DNA of 40,559 nt, taken from a virus. Taxonomy: Duplodnaviria > Heunggongvirae > Uroviricota > Caudoviricetes. The notes beneath the pieces were generated by a model. That model saw only the letters and a list, made by a program, of their open reading frames with translations. It was not told where the DNA came from and searched no databases. Location of the stretch: the IMG/VR virus record IMGVR_UViG_2541047813_000005, positions 1-40,559 of that record, one strand, 5' to 3'. The position numbers were made by a program, and so were the translations under genes. This document shows positions 3,410 through 38,471 of the stretch, piece by piece. Position 1 is the stretch's first letter. Every line of letters begins with the position of its first letter.

Positions 3410-3907
3410 TCAGTGCCACGATTTTTGCTTCTTCAGTGAATCGTATTGCTGCTCGCAGAATTCCCCTGCGATACGATACTTTTCAGCCTCAGCTGCTGTT
3501 GCGTTGTAAACTCGGTTGCTTTCTTCAAGCATGTCGGCGAGCACACCGATGACCTTGCTGGCTGGCGTGCCAGGTGGGAAAGATCCGGTATAGTGTTCGG
3601 CGAGCCGCCTGGTTTTGTCAAGCTCGGCGCGCATGCTGTCAGCAGCGGAATTAGCATACTCAGCATCAGCACGCGCCGCATCGATACGGGATTGTGCTTC
3701 ACGTTCAATTTGTGTTTTCTCCTGCTCACGCTGTGACCTTAACTTATCATCAGCCTGTTTCTGATCTTCCTTCGCCTGCGCATACCCGGCATCGTACTGA
3801 CGGATGCCGTGCACATTCCAGGCAACAACTCCTGATATGACCAGAACAGCAAGCATCGCCACGATAAGTAACTGTTTACGGTATGCTTTTACAAATGCCC
3901 AGATCAT
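3410..3907 (-). CDS. Rz-like i-spanin (inner-membrane spanin)
   Basis: 165 aa; N-terminal TM helix then charged coiled-coil-like periplasmic region; last gene of lysis cassette; overlaps endolysin stop. Confidence 0.65.
3433..3681 (-). CDS. Rz1-like o-spanin lipoprotein embedded in the +1 frame of the i-spanin gene
   Basis: Embedded ORF with signal peptide and lipobox '[12 protein letters not shown]', proline-rich mature part; start codon choice (3681 or 3666) uncertain. Confidence 0.45.
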   Translation of the reverse strand: MRRVLMLSMLIPLLTACAPSLTKPGGSPNTIPDLSHLARQPARSSVCSPTCLKKATEFTTQQQLRLKSIVSQGNSASSNTIH

Positions 3908-8197: not shown

Positions 8198-8272
8198 TTT
8201 GCAAAACGTGCTGGATAGCCAATAAATTATTTGGTACTGTTTATTAATACAGTTATTACATGGAGAGATAAG

Positions 8273-8530
8273 ATGCAGCGGTATCACTATCCACTGGAAG
8301 AAGGATTTACCGAAAGGATTCACACGCCGGGAGGCGTCAGGTCACTGGTGGAGGGATCGCACTTGATGAAATTACTCCGGGATCTCGATAAGGATGGATT
8401 TAATGTCGATGGCCCACTTGCCGAACTGACTGCACTGATTAACTACGTCACCAGCTCACAGATGTCTATGCAGGATCTGCAAACACATCTCGACTATTGT
8501 GCCGAACAACTACGAAAACAAACCACATAA
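8273..8530 (+). CDS. Hypothetical small protein (85 aa), opposite strand to late genes
   Basis: ORF 8231..8530; ATG 8273 with GGAG 7 nt upstream; operator-like site upstream; no recognisable motif. Confidence 0.4.
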   Translation: MQRYHYPLEEGFTERIHTPGGVRSLVEGSHLMKLLRDLDKDGFNVDGPLAELTALINYVTSSQMSMQDLQTHLDYCAEQLRKQTT

Positions 8531-8552
8531 AGAAAAGGCCGCGAAAGCGGCC
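8528..8552 (-). terminator. Hairpin terminator after small membrane-protein gene
   Basis: ggccgcgaaagcggcc hairpin (8537..8552) followed on the minus strand by UUUUCU. Confidence 0.5.
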
Positions 8553-8561
8553 TGTGACATG

Positions 8562-8858
8562 TCACGTCCCTTTTCTGAATGATAGCCATTCGAAAAATGA
8601 TGACATTCCACCGCAGACAATAGCAAAGATGATCCCACCAAAGAAGAGAAGGCCAGCCTGCCACCACTCCCACCGCCATACATCCACAGCGCCAACCATA
8701 CCAACAATCGCTCCAACAAATGGAATATAGCTCACGATGAAAGCAATGGGGGCTGCAATTATCCAGTGCAATCCCCACCATGATTCAAGCCCAGCCATAA
8801 TTGCTGCCAACTGAAAAAGACCAACGACGATATAAACAATGAATCCTATAGCTTGCAT
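8562..8858 (-). CDS. Small integral membrane protein (hypothetical)
   Basis: 98 aa, almost entirely hydrophobic with Trp-rich segments; stop codon embedded in GTGACATGTCAC palindrome. Confidence 0.5.
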   Translation of the reverse strand: MQAIGFIVYIVVGLFQLAAIMAGLESWWGLHWIIAAPIAFIVSYIPFVGAIVGMVGAVDVWRWEWWQAGLLFFGGIIFAIVCGGMSSFFEWLSFRKGT

Positions 8859-9053: not shown

Positions 9054-11528
9054 TTATTGCGGAGTGACATCCTGAGGTCGCCACCAGTATGTCTGGTTAA
9101 ACTCTTTCTTCGAACGTTGCTCCATTTTACGCAAATAGCCTGGTGAAAAATACTCCTGCATCTGGTTAAAGATCATGTGATCGAGAGCCGCCTTCAAGTA
9201 CCAGAGATTCGCACCAGGCATCAAACCTTTCCCCAGCTTCACCAGATCACCACCAGTCTGCTCACTCTTCCCTTCCACAGCATTTAACGGTATGCCCTGA
9301 GCAATCTTCACTACGTCATCAACCAGACCAGCTACCGGGCCAAGCATCGACGCCAGCGCGCCGCTTCCGTACCTAGTGTGATCTGACAATAAAAAGTCAC
9401 CGTAAAGGCCAAGACCACCACCTTTCAGTAGAGCACCAAGCCAAAATTTAGCAGCATCTTCTCCTGTCATCTCGCGAGGATTACGACCAGACGCAAGGTC
9501 GTTAAGTTGCTGCGACAAAGCGCCAAGAATGGTCGTACTGGCAATAAACGTCGCAATATATGCCGCACGCCCACCAGCAGACGGCATACCCATAGCGCGT
9601 GACCAGTGACGCATAACCACCGAGATAGGGAACGATTTAAACAGGAAAACACTTCTCGTTAATTCACCTTTCCATGTTCCACGCTGAATACCAGAACCGG
9701 TTATCAGTTGCTCACGTGCTCCCGGTGTAATAACAGCCATATCAACTTCTTCAGTTACGGCACCGAGCAGTTTACGCATTGCCTCAAATTTCACGCGTTC
9801 AGGCTCACCAAGATGTTTAACTGCTGAATCAGGGATACGCATAATGCTTTCCGGTGTCAGCATCGTATTATTGCCGTTCCCCCAGTCCTCCTGTTGCGCC
9901 AGCTTCCATACGCTCCAGTCTGTGTCAGTAATCCCTTTGCTTTTCAGGATACGAAAATCAGAATCATCGAGGCTACGAAGGTCTGGTGTCCGTGACACTA
10001 CTTCTCCCAGGCTTCCCATCATGGTTACGCCATAGGCGCGCTTGTGCGCATCTGACCATGCTGTAAGCCCACTGGCACGCATTACCGCCGTTGCAGCCCA
10101 ACGAGACACAGACGGCCCCATATTATCCATCGCCCAGCGGTTAACGCTGCCAAGTAGAGATTCCATCGCCAGGCCAGCGCGGCGCGCCCGCGCAAGCTCA
10201 GTACGGTTCGTTGGGTCCATAGCTTCAAGCTGGTTGCGAAATAACTGGTTCATTGGAAGGTTGGTAACCTTCGCAGACAGATACATGGTTCCAAGATCAG
10301 AGAACGATGACAGCAACGCGGATCCGAGTCTGCTGGCAACCAGCCAGTTGCGGATATTGTCAGACCATCGCGCGATGTGCGGATTCGCTACAGGCTGTGT
10401 TTTTCCGGAAATAAAGTTGTACAAGTTCTCTGTTTTGTTCGCCAGACGCTCGACGCTACCGGTTTTACTCGGGTTAGCTGTTGCCGTTTCTGCCTTAACC
10501 TGATCAAGAAGGGAGCGGAAAACATGATCGGGGTTTGGACCATATGTTTCCACCAGAGCAATATCTTTACTGATACCTTCCAGGTGACCGACCATGATTT
10601 CCCATAGAGAGCGATCGCCATAAAGTTGCTGATATTGCAGATAGGAATCTGCATCTTTGAAATGTATCTGTCGTGATGCATTACCACGGTTAGCACGTGC
10701 GCCGGAAATTCGCATTCCGGTATCAGTAAGCTTATTCAGCCCACCAGTAGCGATCGTGTTATAAGCCTCTCCAAGAAATGCAGACAACTCGGCATCGTTC
10801 ATCAGTTGTCCATCGGCTCGGATATAATATTTGCGATCCAGCTTACCTATAACATCGCTAACCCACTTATCCTTTGATACCGCCCCAACCTTTTCCATAG
10901 AATGATGTTGAGGGATCCCCCAGTTTTCGAGATAGCCAATGTCCCCACCAGCATCATTAAACCGGCGGCGCAGTAGATCTGTCACTTCTCTCCACGCCTT
11001 AGCACCTTTTCTTGCTTTAACATTGCCAGTATTTTGCCCTCGCATTTCATATACCAGGTCACGTACGCCAGCTTCATCTTCAAACAGGCCAAAAAAGCGA
11101 GGATCAACTGCTTCAAATGCCTCTTGCAATTGACTCAATGCATAATCACGAGTGGCTTTTGTTCTGGACTCAACAGAGAGGAAATTCGATTTACCGTCTG
11201 CATTAAAAGCAATAGTACGGTTAAGAGCGCCAAGTTTCCCATCAGCCCCTTGATAGCTATTGATAAATTTATCCAATCTCTGACGTGCGGCTATAGTGAG
11301 GGCCACACGACGTTTCTTTAATGCCGCTTCTCGCTGTAATTCTTCAGATGCCAATTGTGCTGCTCGATATAGCCGCTCTGATTCGGAAAGTTGTCTCCAC
11401 GACATCGGGTCATCACGAGCAATGGAGCGCATATTTCGATAAATGCGGTCTTCAATGTTCTGTATTTCTCGCTCCGTTAACGTGCGCTGCGCCGCCTGCT
11501 GGACCGCTTGTATACATTCCTGTCTCAT
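9054..11528 (-). CDS. Large virion protein (putative internal core/ejection protein)
   Basis: 824 aa; position between tail tubular genes and tailspike in a podovirus-type late operon; no catalytic motif recognised. Confidence 0.6.
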   Translation of the reverse strand: MRQECIQAVQQAAQRTLTEREIQNIEDRIYRNMRSIARDDPMSWRQLSESERLYRAAQLASEELQREAALKKRRVALTIAARQRLDKFINSYQGADGKLGALNRTIAFNADGKSNFLSVESRTKATRDYALSQLQEAFEAVDPRFFGLFEDEAGVRDLVYEMRGQNTGNVKARKGAKAWREVTDLLRRRFNDAGGDIGYLENWGIPQHHSMEKVGAVSKDKWVSDVIGKLDRKYYIRADGQLMNDAELSAFLGEAYNTIATGGLNKLTDTGMRISGARANRGNASRQIHFKDADSYLQYQQLYGDRSLWEIMVGHLEGISKDIALVETYGPNPDHVFRSLLDQVKAETATANPSKTGSVERLANKTENLYNFISGKTQPVANPHIARWSDNIRNWLVASRLGSALLSSFSDLGTMYLSAKVTNLPMNQLFRNQLEAMDPTNRTELARARRAGLAMESLLGSVNRWAMDNMGPSVSRWAATAVMRASGLTAWSDAHKRAYGVTMMGSLGEVVSRTPDLRSLDDSDFRILKSKGITDTDWSVWKLAQQEDWGNGNNTMLTPESIMRIPDSAVKHLGEPERVKFEAMRKLLGAVTEEVDMAVITPGAREQLITGSGIQRGTWKGELTRSVFLFKSFPISVVMRHWSRAMGMPSAGGRAAYIATFIASTTILGALSQQLNDLASGRNPREMTGEDAAKFWLGALLKGGGLGLYGDFLLSDHTRYGSGALASMLGPVAGLVDDVVKIAQGIPLNAVEGKSEQTGGDLVKLGKGLMPGANLWYLKAALDHMIFNQMQEYFSPGYLRKMEQRSKKEFNQTYWWRPQDVTPQ

Positions 11529-25765: not shown

Positions 25766-26584
25766 ATGAAAAACTTCAAGGTAATTAGCATGTTTGAATC
25801 GTTTAAAGAGCTGTTTTTATCTACTGCCAATACTGCCGTGAATCGAGCCAAAAACCCTGTGCTTGGTGCTTTTGTTATGTCCTGGTGCGCCTTCAACTGG
25901 AAATCAATTCTTTATCTATTTTTTAGCAAATCAAACATAATAGATAAAATTTCATATATCTCAGATAACAGCACATGGAAAACTGTTATGTTTTATCCAT
26001 GCTTATCTGTAATTGCTATCTGCTGCCTATTACCATGGGTAAACAATATCATTAACGTATGGCAAGCAAAGCCTCTTGATAATAATGACTCAATCGAAAA
26101 TCACCTGAAGGCAAGAAAAATCCAGCGTGAAACCAGACTGCAGAGGTTATTGGCTAAAAAAGATGTTACATACGACAAAGTTAAGACTGGCGCGGAAAAA
26201 GACATCCAAGAGATGAAAGAAGAGATTATTCGATCAAAGAATAGTATGGGGGAATTGACTGCCGAGTTGAAAGCTAAAGATGACGAATTGAGATCCGCCA
26301 GTGCTCAGTTAGCAGCTCTAAATCATTCATTAAAAGAGATATCGGAAACTCTGGGAAGAATGAATGAGGCATATAAGACCCTCCAAAATGATTTCGACGA
26401 ATACAAACTCAAATACCCTGAAAAATCTCAAATAAAAAGCCTTGCACTTGGCAACGGCCAAACAATTAGCAACTTTTTGGAGCAACACAACTTATCCGGA
26501 TTAAAATCTGGTAAGCCAAACGTTTTTAATAACTTTGGTGTTCTATCTGGATTATCAGGTTTCGATGATAAAAATAAAGACTAA
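25766..26584 (+). CDS. Cargo (moron) protein: N-terminal hydrophobic/membrane region plus long coiled coil; function unknown, candidate exclusion/abortive-infection factor
   Basis: ORF 25694..26584, probable start ATG 25766; AT-rich codon usage unlike flanking late genes; opposite strand; stop overlaps terL stop convergently. Confidence 0.5.
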   Translation: MKNFKVISMFESFKELFLSTANTAVNRAKNPVLGAFVMSWCAFNWKSILYLFFSKSNIIDKISYISDNSTWKTVMFYPCLSVIAICCLLPWVNNIINVWQAKPLDNNDSIENHLKARKIQRETRLQRLLAKKDVTYDKVKTGAEKDIQEMKEEIIRSKNSMGELTAELKAKDDELRSASAQLAALNHSLKEISETLGRMNEAYKTLQNDFDEYKLKYPEKSQIKSLALGNGQTISNFLEQHNLSGLKSGKPNVFNNFGVLSGLSGFDDKNKD

Positions 26585-28056
26585 GCATATGGATCGTACT
26601 CGGTAAGCGACTTGCCTTGCTGGTTCTGCTGCCCGGGAATTCGCAGACGCTTCGACACAGGGAACGCAAACGTCAGCAGTAGCGCATCGCCTTTACCAGG
26701 AGAACGCCCAAGCCGCTCTTTGATATCTTCCTTCGGTTCGATAACGATTTTACCGTCCACGCGAACTTTGTACTCTGCCGCCGACAGGTCGTCCGCTGTT
26801 TCCTGGTCATCCAGCATGCCGCCCAGCCTCAGCCATGTCTTGCATGAGTTGAACATCTCCCCACGCTTGTTGAGCATCTGCGGGTCAGTAGACGCGCCAC
26901 CGAACGGAACAAGTTGCCATGTGCGCCCCCAACCGTCACCGATTGACTTCAGCCCGGTACCGTAACCGAAGTCGATGAACACCGCGTCAGCCTGATACTT
27001 GTCTTCAAAGTCAGCGATACGCTTTGCCATAATCAGATCGTCAGTGGTCTTGTTGCCGGTCCACAGCACCTTACTGTGCAGCCCCTGCCGCAGGTATATC
27101 ACAGCGTCATCAACGCCGGAGTATGCCGGGTCAACGCCGATTATCACCGGAGCATGTGCAACCTGCGCAGCGGTTACCACCCGTTTCATTGCCTCGTCAG
27201 TAAGGCCGGTAGGGATAAACTGCAATTCAGATGCATCCGGGAATATACCGCGCACACGGATTTTAACGAAGTCGCTGTCTTCCCCGTAGTCATCAACCCA
27301 TTTCTGCAACTGCTGTTTGTTAGTGCCTTCCACCGTCCGGCTGTCAATCTGCGCAGTTTTCCAGCGGTGTTTATATTTGCGGAAACATTCGCGAAAACGC
27401 CCGGTGTTACGTGTAGGGTTTCCGAACGCCACCCAAATAATCTCAGTGTCTTCGTCCGTAAGCGCACCCTCGGCAACTTCCCACACCAGATCCGCAATGT
27501 TCGACGCTTCATCAAACACCACGATGATGCGTTTGCGCTCGTTGTGTAGTCCGGCGAATGCCTCGGTGTTGTGCTCAGACCAGGGTATTGCGTCAGCCCG
27601 CCACCGCTTGTCGTGCCCTAGGTCATTGCTGTACATCGCGGTAGCGGTACAGGTAAACCAGTCTTTCGTGATAGCAAGGTTCGACCACTTGATAATTTCC
27701 GGCCAGGTCTTCGTTCGTAGCTGGTTGTCGGTGTTGGCGGTCACCACGACCTTACAATCCTCGCAAGTGGACATGCCCCAGTTGATCAGCATTGAGATGA
27801 ATGCGGATTTACCAATACCGTGACCAGAAGCGCGTGCCAGCATAAGCGGCTGATAGCGCGTCTCTGGATTCTGCAGGTGATCACGTATCTCTCGGAACGC
27901 ATCGGCCTGCCACTGACGTGGACCGGTGGCATGTGCCAGTTCAGTCCCCTCTTCCCCCCACGGGAACGCATAGAGGGCATAACCAAGCGGATCGTGAGTG
28001 AACCCTGCAATATCCTCGATCAACTGCTCTTCAGGAGATAACGCTGTATCTTTCAC
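26581..28056 (-). CDS. Terminase large subunit
   Basis: 491 aa; ATPase-like N-terminal region and nuclease-like C-terminal region; overlaps terS stop by 4 nt. Confidence 0.8.
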   Translation of the reverse strand: MKDTALSPEEQLIEDIAGFTHDPLGYALYAFPWGEEGTELAHATGPRQWQADAFREIRDHLQNPETRYQPLMLARASGHGIGKSAFISMLINWGMSTCEDCKVVVTANTDNQLRTKTWPEIIKWSNLAITKDWFTCTATAMYSNDLGHDKRWRADAIPWSEHNTEAFAGLHNERKRIIVVFDEASNIADLVWEVAEGALTDEDTEIIWVAFGNPTRNTGRFRECFRKYKHRWKTAQIDSRTVEGTNKQQLQKWVDDYGEDSDFVKIRVRGIFPDASELQFIPTGLTDEAMKRVVTAAQVAHAPVIIGVDPAYSGVDDAVIYLRQGLHSKVLWTGNKTTDDLIMAKRIADFEDKYQADAVFIDFGYGTGLKSIGDGWGRTWQLVPFGGASTDPQMLNKRGEMFNSCKTWLRLGGMLDDQETADDLSAAEYKVRVDGKIVIEPKEDIKERLGRSPGKGDALLLTFAFPVSKRLRIPGQQNQQGKSLTEYDPYA

Positions 28057-28649
28057 TGATTACCATCCTGACGTTCTTTGAGTCGCTTCCTGGCTGCTGC
28101 TATGCGATCAGCAATTGTCACATTCACATTAACATCCAGACGTTCTTTGAACGCGTTGACATCAACATGCTTACCAATCAGTTCGAGGTTCTTCACCTTG
28201 TCAGGCCATTTAATTTTTTTGAGGATTGTCTCTATCGAATCCTCGTTCATGTTCATGATGGTCGATGACAGATCAAAGCCACTAAGCGTAGTGCGCCAGA
28301 TTTTCGGCCACTCGCGGATTGGCTTAAGGCTCCCATCGTCGTTGAGGATGTCGATCACGTCCATCTGGTCGATCTCCACCAGGCGCATGAGAACGTAATC
28401 AGCACTGACGCGCATTCGTTTGTTGCGCTCCTCCATCAACTCGGCAATCCGTTTTTGAATGCGTTCATCGCGCATCATGACACTGGCTTTAACTGCCGCT
28501 GTATTTGGGGAGAATCCTGCGTTAATCGCTGCCTGAGTCTGGTTTTCAGGCGTTTTGATGTATGACTGGCAATAAGCCTCCTGCATTGCTGTTAGTGGCT
28601 TAAATTGCGTTGATTTGCGTTTATAGGTTTTAGGTTCAGCAGGCATCAT
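28053..28649 (-). CDS. Terminase small subunit
   Basis: ORF 28053..28745; likely start at internal Met (28649); 'AINAGFSPNTAAVKASVMMRD' resembles terminase small-subunit DNA-binding region. Confidence 0.65.
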   Translation of the reverse strand: MMPAEPKTYKRKSTQFKPLTAMQEAYCQSYIKTPENQTQAAINAGFSPNTAAVKASVMMRDERIQKRIAELMEERNKRMRVSADYVLMRLVEIDQMDVIDILNDDGSLKPIREWPKIWRTTLSGFDLSSTIMNMNEDSIETILKKIKWPDKVKNLELIGKHVDVNAFKERLDVNVNVTIADRIAAARKRLKERQDGNQ

Positions 28650-28758
28650 AACCACCGTGGTAATAGTTACCGTTGTGGTAATAGTACCATGCAAAATAAA
28701 GCCGCCATAGTTGGCGGCAGTATTCAAAACCATCAAATTCATCATGCATAATCTACTC

Positions 28759-28770
28759 GTGACATGTCAC
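28759..28770. repeat. 12-bp perfect palindrome GTGACATGTCAC (copy 2)
   Basis: Identical to 8554..8565; overlaps the stop codon of the upstream minus-strand gene in the same register. Confidence 0.6.
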
Positions 28771-29114
28771 ACTATTAATTTCGTTTCATGCCAGCCTTTA
28801 GTCACCCAGCATTGCGAGTCACCATTACACGGGCATGAATTAACTGGAACTCTCTCGCCGCACTTACCGCAACGTTTTCTGCTGATCGATTTTATACGCC
28901 CGCGCACGCGTGCATCATCCTGGCGGATCAGTAACGCTATATACTCACCAAATTCGTAAGGCGCACGCCCGGGGCGACGCGTGGCACAGTTACGCTCCAG
29001 CATTTCAATTTCCTGAGCATCAAGCACAATTTCCAGCTTACGCACACCAGATGCAGCTTGTCTGGCTCTCTGAGCGGCTTTGCGCTCTGCGGGGGATTTA
29101 GCCACGAATCGCAC
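28767..29114 (-). CDS. Small Cys-rich (zinc-ribbon-like) protein, possible late-gene regulator
   Basis: 115 aa; C-terminal 'CGKCGERVPVNSCPCNGDSQC'; immediately upstream of terS. Confidence 0.45.
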   Translation of the reverse strand: MRFVAKSPAERKAAQRARQAASGVRKLEIVLDAQEIEMLERNCATRRPGRAPYEFGEYIALLIRQDDARVRGRIKSISRKRCGKCGERVPVNSCPCNGDSQCWVTKGWHETKLIV

Positions 29115-29219
29115 TCCACGCCAGATTGATTAATGACTCCCAGGTAATATAAACCCGGATACCAGCAGCCAGGCCGAAACCAATCACCATGGCATAAAGC
29201 AGAGCGTTGCACTTGTCCA

Positions 29220-30035
29220 TCACTTCACCTCCTGCGGCGGTTCTGGTAACGGCATCCAGTACAAGGCGTTCCCTAACCACGATAAAGTGCCGTCGCTCAA
29301 CTCCACGTATTCCCCTTGTACCTGTCCTGCCATATACTCGCCGTGCTTTGAATAAATTAAAATCCAATCATCTTGAGCGGGCATTCGCTCACTACAGCTT
29401 ATCCAACCATCCGGAGTTACCGGAGAGTTGCCATTCACAAGGTCAGCTCGAACATATAGTGTGTCATCATGGTGCTGATTGTGGCTGCACCACGTTAATT
29501 CGCTTAACTCGCCATCTTCTGGCCATACTCCAGCTGTTTGCAGCCAGATATGGGCTGGCGCATCTTGGCAAGGTGTATTAACTGGCAACTTGTAAGTTTG
29601 GCTTACAGGTTGGCTACCCTGAAGCATGGCAGCGTGGCAGGCATCCTCAACGTTCTTCACTGCATCTGCGCAGTAGTTATAGCGATTGCATTCCACTAAT
29701 TTCTGCTTGAGGTTTTCAATTGCTAACTCGATTTCATCCGGCACTACCGGCTCTGGTTGGATAGTGACGTTGGCAAAGGCAGCACGCAAACCGGCCTTAA
29801 TTTCCTCTACTTCATCAGCGCCTAGCGATGAATCTGACAATGCGTGATGGAATGCGTAAGCCATGTCGTCGTTGATTTCTACAGGCACACTATCAGCCTT
29901 GCGGCGCTCCTGTAGCTCGCGCAGAGCCGCTGCAACATAATGACTATTGTGCTGGTCAGCCCACAGAATGAGCCGAATCAACGTTGCATTTGAAACGTAT
30001 TCGTCTGTTAGTTTGCTATTGGTAAAAGTGGTCAT
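29220..30035 (-). CDS. DUF551-like phage protein (hypothetical)
   Basis: 271 aa; C-terminal 'WMPLPEPP' motif recalled as typical of DUF551 proteins of enterobacterial prophages. Confidence 0.5.
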   Translation of the reverse strand: MTTFTNSKLTDEYVSNATLIRLILWADQHNSHYVAAALRELQERRKADSVPVEINDDMAYAFHHALSDSSLGADEVEEIKAGLRAAFANVTIQPEPVVPDEIELAIENLKQKLVECNRYNYCADAVKNVEDACHAAMLQGSQPVSQTYKLPVNTPCQDAPAHIWLQTAGVWPEDGELSELTWCSHNQHHDDTLYVRADLVNGNSPVTPDGWISCSERMPAQDDWILIYSKHGEYMAGQVQGEYVELSDGTLSWLGNALYWMPLPEPPQEVK

Positions 30036-30397
30036 GCTGTAGCCCCTTCTTGATATTTTTCAAACCAGAACACAACCGGGTCAGATTTCATTTCAACCAA
30101 TCCCATACGAACCAGCGCCTTGCCTTTCCCGGACGCAAGGAATTCACGACGACCATCACTGATAATTCGCCGATAATCTTCCAGGCTACTGCAATGCTTG
30201 TGCAGATTGCATGGGTGGCATGCCGGAACCATGTTGGATATATCGTCACGATCCTGGTGAAGCATATTTCCAGCAAAACGAATGACCGGTTTTACGTGGT
30301 CTGCGTGCCACTTTTCGCCAAGTTCGCAGCCGCAATAAGCACAGCGACCGCCGAACTTCATGCGTAATTCTGCACGTTGTTTTTTCGTCAGTGCCAT
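30032..30397 (-). CDS. HNH endonuclease
   Basis: ORF 30032..30487; likely start at Met 30397 (AAGGAAAA RBS); 'CAYCGC...HADHVKP...N...CHPCN' HNH motif. Confidence 0.7.
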   Translation of the reverse strand: MALTKKQRAELRMKFGGRCAYCGCELGEKWHADHVKPVIRFAGNMLHQDRDDISNMVPACHPCNLHKHCSSLEDYRRIISDGRREFLASGKGKALVRMGLVEMKSDPVVFWFEKYQEGATA

Positions 30398-30398
30398 T

Positions 30399-30659
30399 TC
30401 AGTTTTCCTTATATGGATTAATTTTATTGTGCAGTGTATTGAACGACGCCCATACCACGTCGTTATACAATTCAATAACTGGCTCAATTATTTTCCCGAT
30501 TCCCCATACCAGAATTAACGGGGATATCGGTATCATCAATACGATAAACAGAATGAGAAACAGGAATTCTGTCGTTCTACTCTTTCGCGGATATTCTTTT
30601 CTGAATAATGTCGGCACATCACTCTCCTTTGATGCGAATGCCAGCGGCACGGGAATCAT
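30399..30659 (-). CDS. Small membrane protein (hypothetical)
   Basis: 86-aa ORF with TM segment 'FLFLILFIVLMIPISPLILVWGIG'; its stop lies 1 nt from the HNH start; weak RBS. Confidence 0.3.
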   Translation of the reverse strand: MIPVPLAFASKESDVPTLFRKEYPRKSRTTEFLFLILFIVLMIPISPLILVWGIGKIIEPVIELYNDVVWASFNTLHNKINPYKEN

Positions 30660-32280: not shown

Positions 32281-33081
32281 TTACTTGATAAATCCTGCCG
32301 CCTTTCCCCGCTTGTATTCCTCCATCAGCCACTGCGCTGGTGTTATTCCCCCAAGGGTGGCGGCGTTAGGCATGCACCCGAAACTTCGCCCTGGTGGATG
32401 GTAAACGTCTCTCCCTGTGTCCGGAGGTGTACTCATGGGTTCTGGCTTTGCCTGTATGCTGATCACCGGATCGGGTATCTGCTGTCCGGAAGCCACCTTT
32501 TTCGCCCAATCATCGAGCAGCCTGCGCGCGTGTTTCTCAACCTCAATCTCGCTAAGCTGGCGCTGATACATTGCACGGCGGGTATCACATACGACCCAGT
32601 ACATAACCGGATGTCGCCACGGGAATCTTTCGGGACCACCAGGATATAAACTTTTTTCCTTGCTGTACCGGTGAAACTCCGCCATCACATCGTCAATGGT
32701 GACGCCAAGAACCATCTTGCTGTCTTTACACCACTTGATGAATTGCCCTGGCGACGGCCAGAACGGAGATTCACTGGCGCGGGCGTGGCGCATACCAGCA
32801 GAAACCTGTTCACGGGTACGTATTCCCCCTTCGGCAAACGCAGCAATCCACTGCTGTTTTGCAGCAACTTCCTGCTCTGGCGTCTTCAGGTTGGTTACCA
32901 CTGCCGCCGGAAACAGTTGTTTCAGCTGTTTGAAAAGGGCATCAACAAGCCTCTCTGCTGACATGTTCACCACATTGTCATTGTTGACGTACTGATGCTC
33001 ATAACCTGACATGCGAGAAAGGGCTTCTCCGTCACGGTTTTGTATCGCGGTAAAAACGTTGTTCACAAGAAATCCTCCCAC
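32281..33081 (-). CDS. Replication protein P-like (helicase loader)
   Basis: 266 aa; 'GMRHARASESPFWPSPGQFIKWC' closely parallels lambda P 'GMRVARRQNRPFLPSPGQFVAWC' (from memory). Confidence 0.75.
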   Translation of the reverse strand: MGGFLVNNVFTAIQNRDGEALSRMSGYEHQYVNNDNVVNMSAERLVDALFKQLKQLFPAAVVTNLKTPEQEVAAKQQWIAAFAEGGIRTREQVSAGMRHARASESPFWPSPGQFIKWCKDSKMVLGVTIDDVMAEFHRYSKEKSLYPGGPERFPWRHPVMYWVVCDTRRAMYQRQLSEIEVEKHARRLLDDWAKKVASGQQIPDPVISIQAKPEPMSTPPDTGRDVYHPPGRSFGCMPNAATLGGITPAQWLMEEYKRGKAAGFIK

Positions 33082-33860
33082 GCTTCAGGGCTGTTCCAGT
33101 GCGGAACGTTGTTATCAGGTAATGTTGATTGCTTCTGTCTGCTAATCTGCAGCCGCCTTGCCAGCTTCTGCTCCCACTGTGCCTGATGGTATGCCTTACC
33201 CTCAGCCATCCAGTAAATTCTGAACTCTGCAAGTTCCTGTGCCGTTGGCAGACTGTCCAGGTAGATCCCCTGCAATGAGCTTTTCCGAAGAAAGTCATCT
33301 GATGGGTGCCATTGTTCATGCATGACAAATTTGCCTAATTGCCCTGGCCCACCAGGAGGAACAAAGTTATTCATCACGGCGTTGTTTGCGCCGGGGTCAT
33401 GAGGCACAGAATCCCCGGTTTTTGTCCTGCTCTCCCTCTCTTGGTTAAATGACTGGTTATATGACTGGTTCTGGATCCCGTTTTTGGGATCATTCAACAT
33501 CCCGTTTTTGGGATCATTCAACATCCCGTTTTTGGGTATATTCCCGTTTTCGGGTTCATTATCCCCTTCCCGGTTGCCTTTAATGTTCCCGTTTTTGGTT
33601 ATATTAAGAGAGAAAACCCGCACTCTTTTCGTCGCTCCCTTTCTCTCTCCGGTATCTGAAATAAGCCCCATTTTCATGAGCGATATAAGTCCGGCCTGCA
33701 CGGTTTTTTTATTCAGGCAAGTGTCTTTAACGAGGCGTTCTATGCTGGGGTAGCAGAGGTTATATTCATCGGCTCTGTCAGCCATCGAGAGCAGTATGAG
33801 CTTTAATGACGAGCTACCTGGATCTGTCTCCCAGGCCCAATCTGTTGCATGTCTGCTCAT
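33063..33860 (-). CDS. Replication initiator (lambda O-like) with internal origin iterons
   Basis: 265 aa; N-terminal HTH-like region; direct DNA repeats inside the gene encode 'NDPKNGML' repeats; precedes the P-like gene with overlap. Confidence 0.65.
   Translation of the reverse strand: MSRHATDWAWETDPGSSSLKLILLSMADRADEYNLCYPSIERLVKDTCLNKKTVQAGLISLMKMGLISDTGERKGATKRVRVFSLNITKNGNIKGNREGDNEPENGNIPKNGMLNDPKNGMLNDPKNGIQNQSYNQSFNQERESRTKTGDSVPHDPGANNAVMNNFVPPGGPGQLGKFVMHEQWHPSDDFLRKSSLQGIYLDSLPTAQELAEFRIYWMAEGKAYHQAQWEQKLARRLQISRQKQSTLPDNNVPHWNSPEAWEDFL
33449..33607. repeat. Iteron array (putative replication origin)
   Basis: Two perfect 24-bp copies 'atcccgtttttgggatcattcaac' (33475..33498, 33499..33522) plus degenerate copies with core CCCGTTTT(T/C)GG; preceded by 2x 'atgactggtt'. 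Confidence 0.65.
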
Positions 33861-38171: not shown

Positions 38172-38471
38172 GTGAGAAAGTTAAGCCGACTTGAAAAATA
38201 TCACATGAATAAGGTTTCAATGCGCAGTCAGTCAAAGATTGTCGCCGTTACTCCTGCGGCGATAGAGATCGAAAAACGCGCGATTGAAAGAGAGAAAAAA
38301 GGGCAGTTCCGCATTGCCGCTCACCTTTGGCTTCAGTGTATGGATGTTGCTTCTGGTGATGTTGAACGTGCAAGGATCGCGGTTCGCAGGGACCAATGTA
38401 TCACAAAAGGTAACGGCCTTCGCCGTGGCGACTATAGCGGCATAGGATGTTGTGGGGTGGTTTATGACTAA
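38172..38471 (+). CDS. Hypothetical protein
   Basis: 99-aa ORF; start codon uncertain; overlaps methylase start. Confidence 0.35.
   Translation: MRKLSRLEKYHMNKVSMRSQSKIVAVTPAAIEIEKRAIEREKKGQFRIAAHLWLQCMDVASGDVERARIAVRRDQCITKGNGLRRGDYSGIGCCGVVYD

Follow-up and report, generated by a model that had tools for sequence, protein, structure and literature searches.

A predicted ribbon–helix–helix and zinc-knuckle protein and its putative palindromic site at the early/late boundary of a Uetakevirus prophage

What is the role of a small gene that ends the early operon of a prophage and stands directly before its late genes? The window analysed here, a whole stretch of viral DNA of 40,559 nucleotides, is a prophage of the phiV10/epsilon15 type (Uetakevirus), in which the early-right and the late genes lie on the minus strand. 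The final gene of its early operon, here called X, adjoins the late genes, with terS and then terL directly downstream. Uetakevirus phages are common prophages of E. coli, Salmonella, and Klebsiella, and our literature search found no description of late-gene control in phages of the epsilon15/phiV10 type (Uetakevirus). A sequence-only reading of the locus had proposed X as a candidate late-gene activator, with the Ogr/Delta proteins as its analogue. The gene and its immediate neighbours are the following.

28767–29114, minus strand: ORF X, 115 aa from its first GTG, a conserved and real ORF and a member of phrog_536
29098–29220, minus strand: 40-aa hydrophobic ORF (phrog_5525), whose stop overlaps the X start (GTG 29105)
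28053–28649, minus strand: small-terminase gene terS, taken from its probable start, matching PF03592 (E=1.6e-29) and phrog_51 (E=1.7e-58)

The ORF list and the conservation of the cysteines agree with the sequence-only reading, which had described a 115-aa ORF at 28767–29114 with a C-terminal CxxC...CxC...C cluster, and the two profile matches of terS bear out its placement of X directly upstream of that gene in the window. Translation from the second GTG (29105) would yield a protein of 112 aa, and a GGAG is located 8 nt upstream of this codon. As most homologues in the databases are 112 aa long, GTG 29105 is probably the actual start. The overlap of this start with the stop codon of the 40-aa ORF suggests that the two genes are translationally coupled.

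A profile search, which had been proposed as a check on the activator idea, assigned X to phrog_536, labelled “transcriptional regulator” (E=2.5e-54), but gave no match to PF04606 or to the Q families. This family, which is that of epsilon15 gp49, phiV10 p55, and N15 gp46, is named by PHROGs alone: none of the Pfam, NCBIfam, and PADLOC profiles scored above threshold on X, and no Pfam model did so on any of 58 homologues. The PHROGs label is a propagated one, and nearly all other sources call these proteins hypothetical; one depositor labelled a homologue “RepB-like”. At 90% identity the family forms 774 clusters, and 150 representatives remain at 50%. Its members come from Escherichia, Salmonella, Klebsiella, Enterobacter, Yersinia, Pantoea, and Aeromonas, as well as from many Vibrio phages, and the family is spread over podo-, myo-, and telomere-phages. 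In other lineages, the genes downstream of X are xis-int, tum, a umuD-like gene, or small ORFs. The 58 homologues, which reach down to ~26% identity, form the alignment used throughout this work. A literature search that included the exact motif described below, epsilon15 gp49, and N15 gp46 found no functional study of the family.

Structure prediction and the alignment divide the protein as follows.

29049–29093, minus strand: N-terminal basic helix, residues 8–22, with conserved R11-K12-x2-Q15-R16-x-R18
28884–29045, minus strand: ribbon–helix–helix (RHH) core, with strand 24–31, helix 33–45, and long helix 55–77
28809–28871, minus strand: Cys4(5) zinc-knuckle-like cluster (C82, C85, C94, C96, C102)

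The AlphaFold2 model of X, computed with the alignment, has a pLDDT of 94.3 and consists of a helix (residues 8–22), an extended segment (24–31), two further helices (33–45 and 55–77), the cysteine loops, and a last helix (103–110). It has the strand–helix–helix fold of the RHH superfamily. By sequence, X does not belong to the curated RHH families RHH_1, RHH_5, RepB-RCR_reg, or YbfE; matches to the latter three stayed below threshold (E 0.013–0.07, in one or two of the 58 members), with E=0.059 for X against YbfE, whose cutoff is 62 bits. X resembles RHH factors (MetJ/Arc/CopG), above all those that have a basic N-terminal extension (plasmid CopB/RepB, PF10723, and E. coli YbfE), in its strand–helix–helix arrangement with a preceding basic helix and in its short palindromic target, which in the case of X is putative. 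It differs from them in that none of the Pfam or NCBIfam models reaches threshold and in the place of its putative operator, which is found where the gene ends instead of at its promoter. In the alignment, R11, K12, Q15, R16, and R18 are conserved, and the strand residues expected to face DNA vary. A test for a type II antitoxin of the RHH class found no conserved toxin adjacent to X; the neighbours on both sides differ between lineages, and PADLOC gave no match.

The cysteines of X are spaced C82-x2-C85-x8-C94-x-C96-x5-C102. C82 and C85 are invariant among the 58 aligned sequences, C102 is present in at least 90% of them, and P90, G98, R11, and R16 are, like C102, nearly invariant. All 58 homologues have at least four cysteines inside 26 residues of the CxxC, most commonly with the spacing C-x2-C-x7-C-x9-C. 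The cluster is thus not a matter of chance: it is a real, conserved knuckle that probably binds metal, and the metal bound by X would be zinc. In the predicted structure, a short hairpin is present at C-x2-C. The zinc part modelled alone (pLDDT 87) matched no solved fold. The best PDB profile matches of the family were to TraR (E=0.029) and YbiI (E=0.048), both of which are zinc fingers of the DksA/TraR type; the matches to this type, with E in the range of 0.03–0.3, all stay below significance. Direct comparison of the family with TraR by hhalign gave E=9.4e-5 and a probability of 59%. The two share the consensus C-x2-C-G-x2-[ILV]-P-E...F-x-G-x3-C, spaced identically throughout a stretch of 22 residues, but the fourth cysteine of X is displaced with respect to DksA/TraR proteins (PF01258 pattern, C-x2-C-x17-C-x2-C). 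PF01258 (zf-dskA_traR) matched none of the 58 full-length members and none of four C-terminal fragments (TraR control, 1.7e-13), the DksA/TraR signal drops when the C-terminal half alone is the query, and X does not show the globular zinc-domain fold with flanking helices of these proteins. We treat a possible DksA/TraR kinship of the zinc part as a weak lead rather than a finding.

The stop codon of X coincides with a short palindrome, for which the same position was found across much of the family.

28759–28770, no strand: 12-bp perfect palindrome GTGACATGTCAC, the putative X operator, overlapping the X stop codon TGA

The palindrome scan covered 189 IMG/VR loci, which were fetched with three different members of the X family and in which 184 X genes were scored. 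In 174 of these 184 loci, or 67 of 75 distinct contexts, an exact GTGACnnGTCAC is positioned at −1 to +9 relative to the stop codon of X. The centre dinucleotide is specific to the lineage, being AT in Uetakevirus, TG in N15-like phages, and GC in P2/186-like phages, and the variants over the X stop include GTGACGCGTCAC in a Yersinia P2/186-like myovirus, GTGACTGGTCAC in the N15-like PhiR46_1, and GTGACCTGTCAC in Pantoea AH07. Six relatives in which X is 73–86% identical and is followed by different DNA have kept the palindrome, five of them exactly and BUCT554 with one mismatch. In Chlobot, it is found 9 nt past an earlier X stop codon; there and in L190 it lies outside the coding sequence, which indicates that it is conserved as DNA rather than as coding sequence. 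Vibrio phages, with an X of ~30% identity, carry the motif 226–235 nt downstream of X, and in one of them, K303, a further copy lies 20 nt ahead of the terS ATG. The palindrome is often extended to TGTGAC..GTCACA. Its left half, GTGACA, resembles a −35 hexamer, and weak promoter-like spacing follows in several relatives. We considered a promoter that uses GTGACA as its −35 element, which is plausible in some relatives, yet the arrangement GTGACA-18-CATGAT is weak and within chance expectation.

The phages with the motif differ in their repressors, replication modules, and virion types, and X is the sole component common to these lineages, which is our main reason for assigning the motif to X. 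From these comparisons we regard it as rather probable that the GTGAC-NN-GTCAC palindrome, a putative operator, is the site of X. The basic helix would then read the GTGAC half-sites: the constant half-sites go together with a constant RK..QR.R helix and the variable centre dinucleotide with a variable strand, which would fit a pairing of motif and protein. With its RHH fold, its conserved basic helix, and a co-inherited palindromic site, X is very probably a nucleic-acid-binding regulator, and we predict with good confidence that it binds DNA. The DNA-binding fold as such is known; what is unusual in X is the conserved zinc-type module and a precisely defined, matS-like site where the gene itself ends. 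The pairing of X with this site, its placement at boundaries, and a possible link to termination are undescribed in the literature that we searched. X and its precise, conserved 12-bp site thus form a putative protein–operator pair that is directly testable and that offers a handle on the control of transcription-unit boundaries in these phages.

Further copies of the palindrome also tend to lie at the ends of genes. The window contains two exact palindromes, with ~0.002 further ones expected by chance (estimated as 40559 / 4^12).

8554–8565, no strand: second exact GTGACATGTCAC, overlapping the stop of a 98-aa membrane-protein ORF (8562–8858)
8527–8553, minus strand: intrinsic terminator, AGGCCGCTTTCGCGGCCT + TTTCTTTAT, directly after the second palindrome (z = −2.5)

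The 98-aa ORF is the last of the long structural operon, and sites orthologous to the one at its end are present in epsilon15 (19517) and Tyrion (20377). Epsilon15 has three exact copies: one at the stop of gp49, one at that of gp18, where a terminator comes 2 nt further on, and one between terL and the reverse-oriented p50. Kp4865-1 has three copies and Tyrion two, plus one at the record junction, at places orthologous to those of epsilon15; the window is devoid of a palindrome after terL. One copy lies inside repA of an N15-like phage. The usual order is gene end, site, and then a terminator whose U-tract faces the respective direction of transcription, so that the putative sites of X mark the 3′ ends, not the 5′ ends, of transcription units. 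Exceptions are the copy at 24674 of Kp4865-1, where neither an ORF nor a terminator is established, and the terL/p50 sites of Tyrion and epsilon15, for which a terminator was not confirmed.

A terminator is found downstream of X in the phiV10/epsilon15 group, in Omnitron (a non-homologous hairpin), in part of the P2-like group, and in K303-like phages. The order of X, site, terminator, and next unit thus recurs with non-homologous terminators (Omnitron, P2-like phage, K303), at site-to-terminator distances from 0 to ~470 nt. In K303, a terminator with a 12-bp stem ends 12 nt before the holin ATG; because this gap is too short for a promoter, late expression there needs read-through. A Q protein was looked for in K303 and not found. 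L024-type relatives have a 70-aa gene between the site and T1, the terminator described below, which argues that the site travels with X rather than with the terminator. In N15-like phages, AH07, and Chlobot, the ribosome-binding site (RBS) of the next gene follows immediately after the site, without a terminator, and in Klebsiella and Enterobacter relatives the site is followed by a LexA-box promoter and a umuD-like gene. A scan for terminator enrichment was too permissive to discriminate, with a background of ~1 per kb, and it carries no statistical weight.

The boundary between X and terS in the window contains two further elements.

28692–28718, minus strand: intrinsic terminator T1, GCCGCCAACTATGGCGGC + TTTATTTTG, between X and terS, with a hairpin at 28701–28718 and a T-tract
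28648–28682, no strand: two operators of the type ATTACC-N5-GGTAAT, directly before the probable terS start; not an X site

Annotations of epsilon15 and phiV10 include a counterpart of T1. In the window, terS in its longest ORF (start 28745) spans T1 as well as both operator copies, and in the curated annotation of epsilon15 terS begins at a later Met. On these two grounds, the true start of terS is probably 28649 or 28646. With terS beginning there, the gap between X and terS is ~117 nt and holds the terminator and both operators. ATTACC-N5-GGTAAT occurs at 10 sites in the window, where 0.05 are expected. It precedes the terS, portal, and tailspike units, stands ~100 nt ahead of the lysis genes, and is also found in the early control region; the curators of epsilon15 assign it to the prophage repressor. 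An apparent tandem repeat, GGTAACTATTACCAC (28657–28689), was rejected as an X site, as it is this same operator, which the epsilon15 annotation marks as repressor sites. The late units presumably have their own promoters. Every one of them has its own ATTACC-N5-GGTAAT operator, and read-through by X may for this reason be unneeded.

These observations bear on the proposal that X activates late genes. That X would be a DNA-binding regulator at the early/late junction fits what we found, but an Ogr-like activation of late promoters does not, given palindromes at the 3′ ends of units. X shares with Ogr/Delta of P2/P4 its small size, its origin in phages, and four conserved cysteines, but the cysteines are spaced C-x2-C-x7-9-C-x5-9-C in X and C-x2-C-x22-C-x4-C in Ogr/Delta, and X has an RHH domain, unlike these proteins. 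PF04606 was absent from X and its 58 homologues at E<=1 (control, Yersinia phage gp44, 1.8e-21). Moreover, a Yersinia P2-like phage contains a genuine Ogr in the canonical position (E=1.8e-21) and X after gene A, and the N15-like PhiR46_1 has both X and a genuine Q (PF06323, E=2.3e-84) within one operon. This coexistence with Ogr and with Q argues that X is not a general late switch; given also the missing PF04606 match and the different cysteine spacing, the Ogr/Delta analogy lacks support. The view that X is not a lambda Q homologue was right: the Q families PF06323, PF03589, and PF06530 matched neither X nor any of the 58 homologues, and no Q-like protein was recognised in the early operon of the window with Pfam and PHROGs. 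X is similar to Q proteins of the lambda type (Q-lambda, Q21, Q82) in being the last gene of the early operon, in having a DNA site by its own 3′ end, and in the terminator between the gene and the first late gene. It is about half the size of Q and lacks homology to it, and its sites lie at several operon ends, whereas that of Q lies inside one late promoter. RinA-type activators of Gram-positive phages are encoded immediately upstream of terS (PMC3152322). X shares this adjacency with RinA/ArpU/LtrC, but homology to them was undetected, and the X family as a whole does not keep its place next to terS.

We nevertheless weighed X as a classical late-promoter activator (Ogr/Delta- or RinA-like), which would recruit RNA polymerase to the promoters of terS and the late genes, and consider it very unlikely. 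Its position directly upstream of terS, like that of the RinA type (PMC3152322), its predicted DNA-binding and zinc modules, the K303 site just upstream of terS, and the fact that we identified no other late regulator in the right operon of the window would all suit such a role. Besides the profile, spacing, and coexistence results given above, it is contradicted by the absence of the palindrome from the regions that precede the portal, tailspike, and lysis units in the window, which carry ATTACC-N5-GGTAAT instead. In addition, a terminator separates the site from terS in the window, and the K303 site, at 20 nt from the terS ATG, is too near for a promoter downstream of it.

Our main reading, to which we assign a probability of about 0.4, is that X would be a regulator that acts at the terminator of the early/late boundary through its GTGAC-NN-GTCAC operator. 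X would be a small dimer built, from its N-terminus onward, of a basic helix, an RHH domain, a long helix, and a Cys4 zinc knuckle. Its presumed target, (T)GTGAC-NN-GTCAC(A), would have one copy at the end of the early operon, before T1 and terS, and a second before the terminator that closes the main structural operon. Made last in the early operon, X may bind these boundary sites and alter the behaviour of RNA polymerase at the adjacent terminators. In the likelier direction, early transcription would read on into terS and the late genes, and X would serve as a local, Q-like gate rather than in promoter activation of the Ogr type. A positive effect of X on downstream transcription is a tentative possibility, somewhat likelier than a negative one, which is doubtful; the positive effect is favoured because the terminator already blocks, because K303 requires read-through, and because a roadblock inside the late operon of K303 would be harmful. 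A modulation of termination from a DNA site by X would, if true, be a new mechanism. A more far-reaching version, which we consider unlikely, would make X a new class of gate-keeper, an RHH–zinc protein that sits on matS-like palindromes before terminators and makes polymerase read through them. The polymerase might be touched by the zinc knuckle, as a diverged DksA/TraR-like module, and X would be the counterpart of lambda Q in the Uetakeviruses and the K303-like Vibrio phages, in which no Q is recognisable. Unlike Q, it would act locally and need a site at each terminator.

The opposite sign is the first alternative to this boundary reading: as a negative factor, X on its palindrome would be a roadblock or repressor that halts polymerases arriving from the early operon where the X gene ends and insulates the units downstream (late genes, xis-int, tum, morons). 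It may in addition limit its own level through truncated mRNA without a stop codon, as has reportedly been seen with LacI at operator O3. Characterised RHH proteins are repressors for the most part, and several properties of the site would suit a block. It overlaps the stop codon of X itself in most lineages, it directly adjoins the RBS of the following cistron in N15-like phages, Chlobot, and the L024-type relatives, and a bound dimer would occlude the promoter-like GTGACA (−35-like) in several relatives. The late units, with operators and presumably promoters of their own, would suit it too. We nonetheless hold this alternative, although a strong rival, to be doubtful. A block would be redundant in Uetakevirus, Omnitron, the P2-like phage, and K303, where a terminator already follows the site, and it would be harmful in K303, where, within the late operon, 20 nt separate the site from terS; a single small dimer, moreover, is weak as a roadblock. 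If X were a boundary repressor, the placement of its operator would be unusual for a common fold.

A role as a DNA organiser and one at the RNA level were judged less probable. MatP of E. coli, which is also an RHH protein, recognises the 13-bp matS, GTGACRNYGTCAC (PMC6907758), and the half-sites GTGAC/GTCAC of the X palindrome are identical to those of matS. Like MatP with matS, or like ParG, X could be a DNA organiser that bridges a few dispersed sites via its zinc domain, with a role in compaction, packaging, replication, or segregation. Genomes with just two or three sites, the two sites that flank the terS–terL cassette in epsilon15, Kp4865-1, and Tyrion, the homologue named “RepB-like”, and the site within repA of an N15-like phage would be compatible with this. 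It is nevertheless improbable in our view: hhalign gave a probability of 1% for X against MatP, which is missing from the PDB profile matches, the spacer is 2 bp in all lineages and 3 bp in matS, and X is without the four-helix bundle and coiled coil of MatP. X also differs from MatP in its zinc knuckle, in being encoded by phages, and in having two or three sites per genome. The window lacks a site after terL, and a transcriptional role accounts more readily for the steady placement where the early operon ends. The shared half-sites do raise the question of cross-talk with the MatP of the host. Action on RNA, finally, is hardly likely. In this case, the Arg-rich N-terminal helix would bind a hairpin of the transcript, formed by the palindrome as a stem of 4–6 bp with a C-NN-G loop, either in the manner of lambda N at boxB or to control translation of the cistron that follows. 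The RKxxQRxR of X, which we take to resemble arginine-rich RNA-binding peptides, the frequent extension of the palindrome to TGTGAC..GTCACA, and its contact with the downstream RBS in several lineages would be in keeping with it. Against this, the model of X is a confident RHH, a fold that binds double-stranded DNA, the hairpin is predicted to be weak and does not recur stably in the folds, and the stem sequence is invariant across lineages rather than covarying.

A few further leads had other explanations. The “gp46” of PMC12042878 was rejected as an X homologue, as it is the cB repressor of another phage. Fusion proteins of X were likewise rejected as a clue to function, since P0246 resembles read-through from degraded terL fragments. 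The record of phiV10 ends inside the palindrome, but a physical genome end at this point is unsupported; the record just begins after the last stop codon.

The palindrome ATTACC-N5-GGTAAT, which is distinct from the putative operator of X (the X site, GTGAC-NN-GTCAC), is present in 10 copies in the window versus 0.05 expected, allowing up to one mismatch:

Window 5326, 8182, 25129, 28648, 28666, 32166, 32228, 34541, 35253 and 35316: 17-bp ATTACC-N5-GGTAAT sites

The terS, portal, and tailspike units are each preceded by this palindrome. It recurs in the early control region and ~100 nt before the lysis genes, and the epsilon15 annotation labels it a "repressor site". Together, this distribution and label suggest that a single factor directly controls all units of the window, in a manner similar to phage P1. 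The late block is broken up by two moron-like genes in reverse orientation, one following terL (25694..26584, + strand), which has weak SMC/DndD-like coiled-coil matches (PADLOC, E = 2e-5), and one following the structural operon (8231..8530, + strand). The leftward early operon contains a homologue of PerC-family activators (38172..38471, + strand; PF06069, E = 5.5e-7), which appears, from its size and position, to be the counterpart of epsilon15 gp31, a protein annotated as "transcriptional activator". This homologue is a further candidate for a factor that regulates late genes or host genes. In addition, five direct repeats of ~24 nt each (ATCCCGTTTTTGGGATCATTCAAC) are found at 33475..33609, within the O-like replication initiator gene (33063..33860), and are probably origin iterons.

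At the boundary between X and terS, the first ~32 codons of the longest terS ORF cross the predicted intrinsic terminator T1 and the operator pair (window 28650..28745). This ORF is over-extended, as is the phiV10 terS annotation, and the true start is probably the ATG at 28649 or 28646, matching epsilon15. The 40-aa hydrophobic ORF at 29098..29220 (− strand), a match to phrog_5525 (E = 1.7e-29), is probably coupled to X in translation. Other lineages contain a different gene in its place, and it is therefore not a conserved partner of X. Three genes upstream of terS, the window encodes an HNH endonuclease (30032..30487, − strand; PF01844/phrog_2118), which recalls the HNH–terminase pairing of cos phages but is absent from the corresponding position in phiV10 and epsilon15.

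Among relatives that carry X homologues, three Klebsiella and Enterobacter loci (L010, L012, and L013) contain an insertion between the X site and terS. This insert consists of a umuD-like gene encoding 109 aa and a promoter (TTGACT) that carries a perfect LexA box (TACTGT-N8-ACAGTA), with the cassette features located ~10–60 nt past the X stop codon. In the Yersinia P2-like phage, X is followed by tum, a gene under LexA control; X thus often adjoins SOS-controlled cassettes. In Vibrio phage K303 (L002, 4511..4798), the X site is followed by two elements, in a layout that resembles lambda PR'-tR':

L002 4620..4648: promoter-like TTGAAA-17-TATGTT
L002 4753..4786: strong terminator, ending 12 nt short of the holin ATG

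Further copies of the X palindrome were also observed. One with a single mismatch (GTGCCATGTCAC) lies at window 23079..23090, within a 98-aa ORF adjoining the portal gene; about one such match is expected by chance. The Klebsiella N15-like phage 020009 (L207) contains an exact GTGACTGGTCAC at 9621..9632, within the 1339-aa repA gene, and a second copy at 3562, inside a terminator-like hairpin past a gene end.
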